NCBI GenBank assembly: GCA_942491995.1
Contig: CALOCX010000003.1
Span: 139,710 to 203,709 of the forward strand
DNA from: an uncultured Gammaproteobacteria bacterium
GTDB taxonomy: Bacteria > Pseudomonadota > Gammaproteobacteria > UBA9214
Direction of reading: 5' to 3'
Length of the DNA: 64,000 nucleotides
The position numbers were made by a program, and so were the translations under genes. Each line of letters begins with the position of its first letter. Within the stretch, counting starts at the first letter, position 1. Of this stretch, positions 4,721 to 6,210 are shown one piece after another. The notes below the pieces were generated by a model. That model made no database searches. It was given only the letters and a program-made list of their open reading frames with translations, and was not told the origin of the DNA.

Positions 4721-6109
4721 TCAGCTCAGACCAAAACGCTTCAGCTTGCGGTACAGGGTGCGCTCGCTGATACCCAGTGCTTCTGCCACCTGCCGCCGGT
4801 TGTTGTTGTGCTGCTGTAGCAGCTGGCGGATGTGATTCGCCTCAACATCGTGCAACGAGGCTGCCGAGTCCGCTGCGGGCGCAGCCGGTATGGCAGCGAC
4901 GTCCACGGTGCGGGGTGGTGGAACCTGCGACCGCGACTGCGCATTCAGTTGCAACACCCTGGTGACTGTCTCGGCATCGATTTCACCGCTGCCACTGCTG
5001 TGGGTGGCTGCAATAAACAGGATATTGCGCAGTTCACGCACATTACCGGGATAGTCGTACTGCTTCAGTTGTTCGATGGCGTCCGAGCTGAGCTCGAAAG
5101 TGCGAGACATGGTGCGGGAAATCACCTCCAGCAGGTTGGGTGCCAGCATAGCGATATCGTCCAGCCGCTCGCGCAGCGGCGGCAGACGCACCGCCAGGCA
5201 GGCAATGCGGTAATAGAGGTCCTCGCGGAACTGGCCAGCCTTGACGTGATCCCAGAGGTGCCGGTTGGTGGCGCAGATGATGCGCACGTCGGCCTTGCGG
5301 CTACCGCGCCCGCCAACGCGGCGGTACTGACCGGATTCCAGCACACGCAGCAACTTGGCCTGCTGCGACAGTGGCAACTCGCCCACCTCGTCCAGAAACA
5401 GGGTGCCGCCATTGGCCTGCTCGTACATGCCGATGCGTTCCCCGACACTGCCGGTGAAGGCGCCTCGCGCATGACCGAACACCTCGGCCTCGAACAGCGG
5501 CTCGGTCAGCACGGTGCAGTCCACGGTCATAAACGGCTGGTTGCTGCGCACGGAATTGTTGTGAATGAAATTGGCGGCCAGCTCCTTGCCGGTACCGGTC
5601 TCTCCCTGCAACAGCACCGGCGCCTGCGCCGATGCCACCATCTTCAGCTGGTCCATGCAGGCCAGGAACGGTGCTGTCTTGCCAACCATGCGCCGGCCGT
5701 TGCTGCGGCGTTCCTCGGGGACCGAGATTTCCTCGATCAGCTCCCCCATAAACAGCTCGCCACTGCTGCCATACAGGGGATAGGCAGTGACCCGGACCTG
5801 GCACATACGGTGATCTGCATCGTGGTGGACATGCAGGCAGGAATCGCGCTTGCCGATTTCAAACAGGTTGACGTGCGGACAGTCCTCGCCGGACTCGTGA
5901 CAGGGCGCGTCGTTATTGTGGCTGATCTTGTAGCACGGCTGCCCGACGGCCTGCTCCCGGGTGACACCGTAGGTCCGTTCGTAGGCACTGTTGACGGCCA
6001 TGATGCGGTATTCACTGTCAATCACGACAAACGGTTTTTCGTGGCTATCGACCAGTGACTGCAGATCAACGGGCACTGGAATTACGGCAGGTTTCCTTTT
6101 TGTTAGCAT
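4721..6109 (-). CDS. Sigma-54-dependent transcriptional activator (bEBP) with N-terminal PAS-like Cys/His-rich sensor domain and C-terminal Fis-type HTH
   Basis: GETGTGKE Walker A, GAFTGS, ESGQYRRVGG (GAFTGA-like loop region), and C-terminal RRQVAEALGISERTLYRKLKRFGL. N-terminal ~130 aa carry CYKISHNNDAPCHESGEDCPHV...DSCLHVHHDADHRMC. Start moved to internal Met (ATG 6109-6107, RBS GGGGGG); the track start 6157 would overlap the UAS palindrome. Confidence 0.85.
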   Translation of the reverse strand: MLTKRKPAVIPVPVDLQSLVDSHEKPFVVIDSEYRIMAVNSAYERTYGVTREQAVGQPCYKISHNNDAPCHESGEDCPHVNLFEIGKRDSCLHVHHDADHRMCQVRVTAYPLYGSSGELFMGELIEEISVPEERRSNGRRMVGKTAPFLACMDQLKMVASAQAPVLLQGETGTGKELAANFIHNNSVRSNQPFMTVDCTVLTEPLFEAEVFGHARGAFTGSVGERIGMYEQANGGTLFLDEVGELPLSQQAKLLRVLESGQYRRVGGRGSRKADVRIICATNRHLWDHVKAGQFREDLYYRIACLAVRLPPLRERLDDIAMLAPNLLEVISRTMSRTFELSSDAIEQLKQYDYPGNVRELRNILFIAATHSSGSGEIDAETVTRVLQLNAQSRSQVPPPRTVDVAAIPAAPAADSAASLHDVEANHIRQLLQQHNNNRRQVAEALGISERTLYRKLKRFGLS

Positions 6110-6140
6110 ATCTTGCCCCCCGGCAGATGTGGCTGAAACG

Positions 6141-6210
6141 ACTGTCAGTTTTGTCATGTTTTGACAGTATAGCGGATATTACTACTGACAATACTGACAG
6201 CTGTTGACAT
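6141..6210 (+). promoter_or_regulatory. Upstream activator sequence 1: palindromic ACTGTCAG-N13-TGACAGT plus extra TGACA half-sites, ~147 bp upstream of sigma-54 promoter 1
   Basis: ACTGTCAG 6141-6148 and TGACAGT 6162-6168; CTGACA 6185-6190, CTGACAG 6194-6200, TTGACAT 6204-6210. Same motif at the same spacing upstream of promoter 2. Confidence 0.6.

Follow-up and report, generated by a model that had tools for sequence, protein, structure and literature searches.

A FisR-type cysteine-triad PAS domain in a putative sigma-54 activator beside a multihaem cytochrome gene of an uncultured gammaproteobacterium

The question raised by this locus is which signal is read by a sigma-54-dependent activator whose N-terminal domain is crowded with cysteines and histidines, and which gene that activator serves. 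The locus lies in a stretch of 64,000 nucleotides from an uncultured gammaproteobacterium (assembly GCA_942491995.1, contig CALOCX010000003.1, positions 139,710 to 203,709). This full 64-kb stretch is called the window here, and all coordinates are window positions. A preliminary description, made from the letters of the sequence, had called the sensor of this minus-strand protein unusual. As judged from its sequence, the protein is instead a FisR-type cysteine-triad PAS sigma-54 activator, in which the apparent regulon is a different one and the Cys/His pocket is more elaborate. Residue numbers are those of the 478-amino-acid form of the open reading frame (ORF) unless marked "true start"; numbers counted from the true start, M17, are smaller by 16.

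The minus-strand ORF of 478 amino acids at 4721–6157 was found in the window as described, and the coding sequence of the sigma-54 enhancer-binding protein within it (462 amino acids) occupies 4721–6109. Pfam searches matched PAS_4 at residues 38–135, Sigma54_activat at 158–323, AAA_lid_14 at 329–409, and HTH_8 at 435–475. Three PAS families scored above their gathering cut-offs, PAS_4 with 32.2 bits (cut-off 23.1), PAS_9 with 28.6 (27), and PAS with 24.7 (22.6). PF00158 was matched with an E value of 3.9e-62, and PF25601 and PF02954 were matched as well; the features of a bacterial enhancer-binding protein are thus present. On the minus strand the N-terminal PAS sensor domain (residues 31–135, placed by Pfam, AlphaFold2, and Foldseek) covers 5753–6067, the AAA+ sigma-54 interaction domain 5189–5686, and the Fis-type helix-turn-helix (HTH_8, by Pfam) 4733–4855. 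The AAA+ domain contains a Walker A motif, GETGTGKE (residues 185–192; 5582–5605), the sigma-54 contact loop GAFTGS (residues 232–237; 5447–5464), and a Walker B motif, LFLDEVGE (residues 253–260; 5378–5401). GAFTGS is a one-residue variant of GAFTGA, with S for A at the last position, and 101 of 120 orthologues have the same variant. The canonical AAA+ core and Fis helix-turn-helix noted earlier were therefore all recovered by the Pfam and motif scans.

The same Pfam scan of the regulator found no receiver, GAF, or V4R domain, in agreement with the earlier view that the sensor belongs to none of these types; the idea of a thiol- or redox-type sensor was upheld in spirit. The single N-terminal PAS domain is the regulator's only sensor. 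In NCBIfam no equivalog scored above its cut-off for the regulator, and NifA, NorR, and others matched the AAA+ core only. Identity as an NtrC/AtoC-type response regulator was rejected, there being no Response_reg match and the N-terminus being a PAS domain. JGI names many of the orthologues (P0182, P0188, P0210, and others) "two-component system response regulator AtoC"; because these orthologues have no receiver domain, the name is a mis-annotation that hides the family.

The Cys/His-rich stretch runs from C75 to C119, encoded on the minus strand at 5801–5935, and was delimited by its motif and by conservation among orthologues. Its signature is C75-x4-H80-x5-C86-x6-C93 ... C107-x-H109-x-H111 ... 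C119. The preliminary description had counted five cysteines and at least eight histidines in these 45 residues; there are indeed five cysteines, but the histidines number seven. In true-start numbering the cysteines are 59, 70, 77, 91, and 103, and the histidines of the cluster 64, 71, 79, 93, 95, 96, and 100. These residues make up 12 of the 25 Cys and His of the protein in 9% of its length (hypergeometric P 2.4e-7, or about 1e-4 corrected for all such windows of residues). Among 120 orthologues with at least 69% identity, C75, H80, C86, C93, H95, H109, and H111 are invariant; H87 and C107 are each kept in 119, C119 in 114, and H116 in 99, and H112 is not conserved. Because it is conserved across these orthologues, the cluster is not a product of chance.

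An AlphaFold2 model of residues 29–144, built with a 40-sequence alignment, had a mean predicted local distance difference test (pLDDT) score of 94.8. Its secondary structure follows the canonical PAS order, with A-beta/B-beta first, then four or five helices, and finally G-, H-, and I-beta. The cluster spans helix E-alpha to strand H-beta of this model. It thus sits within a single PAS fold, and the earlier picture of a separate Cys/His module following a PAS-like start was not borne out. From the secondary-structure map and the GxxC register common to LOV domains, we infer that C75 stands at the start of E-alpha, that H80 and C86 lie in the E-F loop, that C93-P94 caps F-alpha, and that C107, H109, and H111 are carried by G-beta and C119 by H-beta. 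In the model the elements bearing these residues would line the usual ligand or cofactor pocket of a PAS domain.

Foldseek matched the model to the PAS domains of FixL, LOV proteins, and DosP with a probability of 1.00; the matches to FixL, DosP, LOV, and BvgS had template-modelling (TM) scores of 0.63–0.76 and 15–22% identity. Searching the PDB by sequence with the N-domain gave only generic PAS domains at E values of 0.03 or more (BvgS, DosP, and a GGDEF protein) and no solved member of the subfamily. FixL, DosP, and LOV are the best structural matches (TM 0.66–0.76), and C75 appears, from its motif, to occupy the GxxC position of the flavin-reactive cysteine of LOV domains. They differ, however, in sharing only 15–22% identity with the window protein, and the F-alpha histidine is not conserved outside the clade of that protein. 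This sole F-alpha histidine, H95, varies among 134 diverse domains (L in 42, H in 34, V in 26), which argues against a FixL-type haem site. A FixL-like haem or LOV-like flavin PAS was also rejected as a feature of the family, the family-conserved residues being the Cys and His of the E-F loop and G-beta.

To our knowledge, only three classes of dedicated bacterial sensors for reactive sulfur species are recognised, and FisR is one of them; as far as we know, it has so far been described as limited to sqr/pdo loci like that of Cupriavidus, and its cysteines as "not generally conserved." When the N-domain was compared by tblastn with annotated plasmid and chromid records, the best match was in Cupriavidus metallidurans CH34 (locus L038). 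The CH34 ORF begins MDRPTTLQ and has exactly three N-domain cysteines, at 53, 64, and 71, together with H58 and H87/H89. It is divergent from genes of the metallo-beta-lactamase (persulfide dioxygenase) type and the Pyr_redox_2 (SQR) type and lies upstream of a TauE gene. This gene order is the fisR-pdo-sqr arrangement. Li and colleagues reportedly gave the cysteines of Cupriavidus pinatubonensis FisR the same numbers, C53, C64, and C71, in 2017.

BLASTP aligned the window protein with the CH34 FisR-locus protein over its full length (39% identity, E 7e-110); the CH34 orthologue served here as a proxy, the experimentally studied protein being the FisR of C. pinatubonensis JMP134. C53, C64, and C71 of CH34 align with C59, C70, and C77 (true start), and so do H58 (the histidine at +5) and the HxH pair with their counterparts. 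The two proteins share a PAS-type domain, AAA+ domain, and Fis helix-turn-helix in 441 and 462 amino acids, respectively, and both have the C-x10-C-x6-C spacing, with a histidine five residues after the first cysteine and an HxH pair further on. In both cases the regulator gene is divergent from a sigma-54 target, with a palindrome of the ACTG(C/T)CA...TG(G/A)CAGT type between them. They differ in that FisR controls pdo-sqr(-tauE), whereas the window protein adjoins a surface multihaem cytochrome gene and a ccm operon, and in that the window clade adds the conserved residues C91, C103, H71, and H79 (true start) to the triad and the invariant histidines. In Cupriavidus, FisR senses reactive sulfur species through three cysteines of its R domain (PMC12754779, PMC9774590). 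Disulfide and tetrasulfide cross-links are formed (PMC9774590, PMC8469610), and sigma-54 transcription of the sulfide-oxidising genes is then activated.

The profile and homology searches thus go half of the way to an outcome that the preliminary description had set against a metal module, namely a match to a characterised sensor family with no metal site: the family is a known one, and the published FisR mechanism is metal-free polysulfide cross-linking. Membership in the described FisR family undercuts the word "unusual," which also fails on two other grounds, the canonical PAS fold and the occurrence of the signature in thousands of proteins. When 1.84 billion cluster representatives were searched with a profile, 2669 proteins matched at E ≤ 1e-10; the cluster-member names were uninformative ("AtoC," "PAS domain S-box"). 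C-x4-H-x4/5-P-C-x6-C was present in 141 of 168 retrieved proteins. In the 134 diverse domains, which were selected on the Cys part of the motif alone, the downstream H109 and H111 were kept in 97% and 94%, respectively, and N56, G72, G90, E91, and P127 were also strongly conserved. In sigma-54 activators of about 450 amino acids the module is N-terminal, and it is also the last PAS domain before HisKA in histidine kinases and multi-PAS proteins of Nitrospirota, Deltaproteobacteria, Elusimicrobiota, and others.

Related PAS domains carry variant loops at the same position, with C-x10-C-x2-CP or five cysteines. Other cysteine patterns were seen in P0103, P0144, P0159, P0041, P0049, and P0050, including a repeated GEKCYR...C-x2/x4-CP in multi-PAS proteins and a five-cysteine CHEVLCGRGRTCPCG...CP. 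This variety suggests that the FisR type is one branch of a larger superfamily of PAS sensors with cysteine loops. Short ORFs of 147–158 amino acids with only the cysteine-triad PAS domain were observed on long contigs (L008, 7929–8369; L012, 4320–4793; L022, 7833–8297). One of them is a second copy in the same metagenome-assembled genome as the full-length gene of L006. These ORFs may encode true stand-alone sensors, or they may be genes with frame shifts.

Translation of the window gene almost certainly begins at the internal ATG at 6109–6107, giving 462 amino acids, as had been proposed. The proposal was borne out in several ways. An identical 462-amino-acid protein is recorded at NCBI (P0181), and nearly all of 120 close homologues have 447–475 amino acids. 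The commonest distance from the initial Met to DLQSL is 14 residues (119 orthologues), the same as from M17. The ribosome-binding site that had been pointed out, GGGGGG at 6116–6121 on the minus strand, lies six bases upstream of this ATG, and a G-rich Shine-Dalgarno sequence (GGGGG or GGAGG) precedes the equivalent ATG by 5–9 nt in 17 of 20 related loci. In L007, L011, and L013 an in-frame stop codon stands immediately upstream of that ATG, and in the closest genome (L001) the ATG of the palindrome is out of frame. The ATG at 6157 has no Shine-Dalgarno sequence and falls within ATGACA, a TGACA half-site of the upstream activating sequence UAS1. The segment of 16 codons at 6110–6157 (minus strand) is not conserved and is a spurious 5' extension. 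It had been said that all of its codons would lie over UAS1; the overlap is real, but the element, at 6141–6167, covers only about the first six. In the annotation, the start of the gene should be moved to 6109.

The region upstream of the regulator gene contains two diverged, paralogous intergenic units, at 6118–6470 and 6598–6945. Each consists, in order, of a 27-bp element, a second conserved block, an AT-rich stretch, a sigma-54 promoter, a Shine-Dalgarno sequence, and a signal-peptide-like start. Motif scanning placed UAS1, CTGTCAAAACATGACAAAACTGACAGT, with the palindrome ACTGTCA-N13-TGACAGT, at 6141–6167 and UAS2, the second 27-bp copy, at 6621–6647. The pattern of the 27-bp element, CTGTCA-N5-TGACA-N4-TGACAGT, occurs twice in the window, against an expectation of zero. 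Both sigma-54 promoters are on the plus strand, are of the TGGCAT-N5-TTGC type (TGGCATTGTTCTTGC), and have matching spacing from the element. Promoter 1, TGGCATTGTTCTTGCT, at 6288–6303, lies about 147 bp downstream of the center of UAS1 and drives only a 31-codon ORF; promoter 2, TGGCATTGTTCTTGCC, at 6767–6782, lies about 146 bp downstream of the center of UAS2, and the start codon of the cytochrome gene follows 56 bp further downstream. The 31-amino-acid product, MLTLIKDLLIAIFLVGITLVWVASTHATTLY (6367–6462, plus strand), is paralogous to the signal peptide of the cytochrome, and gene calling in L040, a 95%-identical relative, includes the same small ORF. Unit 1 and this ORF could be a remnant of a duplicated promoter and 5' end, a leader peptide, or a decoy promoter.

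In most relatives, the position that corresponds to UAS1, upstream of the regulator gene, carries a palindrome of TGTCA/TGACA or TGCCA/TGGCA, and a related one, CACTGCCAACTTGGCAGTG, is found in the fisR-pdo intergenic region of CH34 and in L005. That ACTG(C/T)CA...TG(G/A)CAGT is kept in the relatives and CH34 suggests a conserved DNA-binding specificity. Upstream of the large cytochrome genes of other loci, where ORF starts are uncertain, a scan for sigma-54 promoters and TGTCA palindromes gave TGTCA clusters in L011 and L005 and no clear call in L001, L002, and L013.

The presumed target of promoter 2 is a gene for a secreted multihaem cytochrome with five CxxCH motifs (6838–9800, plus strand), homologous to an 833-amino-acid protein of L011. 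Downstream of it lie two terminator-like hairpins (9873–9926, plus strand), which separate the cytochrome gene from ccmA (10199), and the operon ccmABCDEFGH-cycH. A cytochrome gene with at least four haem motifs adjoins the regulator gene in 10 of 23 gammaproteobacterial loci, which have 42–83% identity in the N-domain. These cytochromes are mostly 9-haem proteins of 1089–1360 amino acids with PKD, cadherin-like, Big_9, and MtrC/MtrF-like domains. In those loci the cytochrome gene is usually followed by a gene for a SurA/PpiC-like chaperone, with the ccm operon in many cases located on the other side.

Genes for a PAS histidine kinase, an OmpR-type regulator, and a single-domain receiver adjoin the regulator gene at 814–4646, as they do in L040. 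They are not in the neighborhood of the regulator in L001, L002, L011, and L013, where the pairing of regulator and cytochrome remains. In L001, the genes for the regulator and the 9-haem cytochrome are separated by a DUF2059 gene and an AhpC/TSA-type redoxin gene (9697–10838, minus strand), and in L006 the gene divergent from the regulator gene encodes a DsbA-like thioredoxin. Genes of thiol-redox function are thus found repeatedly near this regulator. In Pseudoalteromonas xiamenensis (NZ_CP099918, L039), a sigma-54 activator with the same signature (5665–7299) is divergent from cydP-cydB-cydX-ybgE. The cytochrome bd operon is a third kind of target for this sensor family, after sqr/pdo and multihaem cytochromes. 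Cytochrome bd has been reported to be sulfide-refractory and to be induced by sulfide in Acinetobacter baumannii (PMC7315123).

Our preferred reading, to which we give about an even chance, is that the protein is a FisR-like reactive-sulfur switch controlling the surface multihaem cytochrome. By homology to FisR, sulfane sulfur derived from sulfide (persulfide or polysulfide) would react with the cysteine triad C59, C70, and C77, held in a PAS pocket with the invariant H64, H93, and H95 (all true start), to give disulfide or tetrasulfide links. The modified PAS domain would then stop restraining the AAA+ ring, or start promoting it, and the ring would assemble and hydrolyse ATP. The Fis-type helix-turn-helix would bind both 27-bp UAS copies, and the bound activator would remodel sigma-54 RNA polymerase at the promoters about 146 bp downstream. 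Promoter 2 would thereby drive the secreted, cell-surface-type multihaem cytochrome next to the ccm haem-attachment operon, and capacity for extracellular or periplasmic electron transfer would be switched on when sulfide is present.

Several observations weigh against this reading. With CH34 SQR, PDO, and TauE as queries, tblastn found no match in the window, nor did any of 39 related loci yield one. The regulon that defines FisR is thus absent, and there is no specifically sulfur gene in the neighborhood. Identity to the FisR-locus protein is just 39%, and the protein compared was the CH34 orthologue, not that of JMP134. The same PAS signature in histidine kinases of unrelated contexts means that the module may sense something more general than sulfane sulfur. 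A mechanism based on thiols only leaves unexplained the three invariant cysteines and three histidines, the proline after the last cysteine, and the two further cysteines and two further histidines of the clade, when two cysteines would suffice for a cross-link switch. The FisR of A. baumannii responds to sulfide without these cysteines (PMC7315123). That protein (A1S_1707) resembles the window protein in being a sulfide-responsive sigma-54 activator divergent from its target operon, and differs from it in lacking the regulatory-domain cysteines that the window protein has (PMC7315123). The presumed target, the cytochrome gene at 6838–9800, is split in this assembly over frames 1-2-1-2-3, compared with the intact 833-amino-acid homologue of L011. 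These four frame shifts reflect either long-read indel errors concentrated in the gene or real gene decay. In L040 the cytochrome gene is also in three pieces, and the flanking ccm genes and the regulator gene are intact.

The unexplained residues would be accounted for by the main alternative, which we hold possible but less likely: the PAS pocket may hold an Fe-S cluster or another tight metal center on the cysteine triad and the invariant histidines, perhaps with C91 and C103 (true start), and serve as a sensor of redox state, oxygen, or sulfide. The cross-links found in aerobically handled FisR would then be a by-product of the apo form; family and regulon would be unchanged, and only the chemistry would differ. 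An HxH pair on one beta-strand and a proline after the last cysteine are typical contexts of metal and Fe-S ligands. Near-invariance of the three cysteines, H80, H109, and H111, with the last two kept as widely as they are among the 134 domains, fits such a site, as do the retention of the clade's two further cysteines and two further histidines in 114–120 of 120 orthologues and the related loops with C-x10-C-x2-CP or five cysteines. Taken together, the invariant Cys/His set, the HxH strand pair, the Cys-Pro, and the extra residues of the clade resemble, in sequence, a metal or Fe-S site more closely than they do a cross-link switch built on two cysteines. On the other hand, no metal in FisR is reported in the accessible literature, and neither the PDB sequence search nor Foldseek gave a match to a solved metal-containing PAS domain beyond the generic fold.

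Two known Fe-S sensors bear on this alternative. OrpR (DVU2106) of Desulfovibrio vulgaris Hildenborough is, like the window protein, a sigma-54 activator whose AAA+ domain is under the control of one N-terminal PAS domain; it has three conserved cysteines starting from about residue 52, and it binds palindromic UAS that flank its own gene (PMC8359166). Its PAS domain, with cysteines 52, 61, and 65 and an acidic residue at +2, carries a redox-sensitive [4Fe-4S] cluster (PMC8359166), and the consensus residue at +2 of C75 here is Glu. By its published description OrpR differs in its motif (C52-x8-C61-x3-C65), in redox sensing by [4Fe-4S], and in its control of the orp operons. The PAS domain of Bacillus licheniformis NreB holds a [2Fe-2S] cluster on only three cysteines with a labile sulfur ligand, and senses sulfide (PMC13478379). 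NreB, with [2Fe-2S] in B. licheniformis and [4Fe-4S] in Staphylococcus carnosus, is similar in having a cytoplasmic PAS domain whose pocket cysteines hold a cofactor for sulfide or oxygen sensing. In contrast to the window protein, however, the NreB proteins are histidine kinases with the motif CX2CX11C(X2C), and they gave no sequence match in the PDB search. The cysteine spacing here (x10, x6) is unlike that of OrpR (x8, x3) or NreB (x2, x11).

An extension of this cofactor alternative to the whole family we regard as rather doubtful. It would make the FisR-type domain a cofactor-binding PAS domain with a Cys3His3 pocket, C-x4-H-x5-C-x6-CP...HxH, in thousands of sigma-54 activators and histidine kinases of several phyla, its cofactor missed because FisR was studied as a thiol switch, and here coupling sulfide or redox state to surface cytochromes.

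It is quite unlikely, in our judgement, that the Cys/His pocket reversibly binds a free ion, such as Fe(II), Zn(II), Cu(I), or As(III), and that the ion turns on the surface cytochromes, for instance with Fe(II) as electron donor. Three-cysteine sites do bind As(III) in sensors of the ArsR type, the pocket is rich in soft and borderline ligands, and the adjoining genes encode surface multihaem cytochromes that resemble MtrC and are of a kind employed in the redox chemistry of metals. Yet no metal transporter or resistance gene is consistently adjacent, the signature adjoins sqr/pdo in Cupriavidus and cyd in Pseudoalteromonas, neither of which is a metal-homeostasis locus, and the sole experimentally studied homologue answers to sulfide-derived sulfur and not to a metal (PMC12754779, PMC9774590). 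A purely structural role for the Cys/His site (e.g., Zn stabilising the long E-F loop), with input from the two-component genes at 814–4646, is highly improbable: the histidine kinase, OmpR-type regulator, and stand-alone receiver genes adjoin the activator gene here and again in L040, but the activator has no receiver domain, those genes are gone near L001, L002, L011, and L013 while the cytochrome pairing persists, and Cys substitutions abolish signalling in FisR and OrpR (PMC7315123, PMC8359166).

Some other features of the window were also recorded. A terminator-like hairpin, assigned by consensus match only, lies directly past the stop codon of the regulator gene (4687–4704, minus strand). 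Three copies of an element of about 48 bp, GAGGTCCTTGATCAATGCTGTAGGAGCGCCGTCCCCGGCGCGAATCGC, are present at 3996–4215, in the gap that separates the gene of the OmpR-type regulator from that of the stand-alone receiver, and similar peptide fragments (APSPAR...) in a spurious ORF near 17459 suggest a dispersed repeat similar to repetitive extragenic palindromic (REP) elements. At 38429–43073 and 59917–63085 the window encodes an NAD-linked diaphorase resembling HoxF/HoxU and the large subunit of a [NiFe] hydrogenase, as well as an A/B subunit pair of a V/A-type ATPase; these genes bear on the energy metabolism of the organism and are unrelated to the regulator.

The reading of the regulator as a FisR-like reactive-sulfur switch, and the cofactor alternative to it, have consequences beyond this locus. 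A cysteine-triad PAS sensor with a fixed histidine pattern is widespread, and occurs also on histidine kinases. In this clade of uncultured Gammaproteobacteria, the sensor adjoins genes for large surface multihaem cytochromes and haem-attachment machinery, not sulfide detoxification genes. If the pocket holds a metal or an Fe-S cluster, the mechanism of the whole sensor family would need revision, and if the cofactor reading is true, the protein would be a regulatory switch that starts extracellular electron transfer when sulfide appears. If the signal is truly sulfide-derived sulfur, the locus would provide a regulatory link from sulfide to extracellular or periplasmic electron transfer in sulfur oxidisers of sediment and soil.

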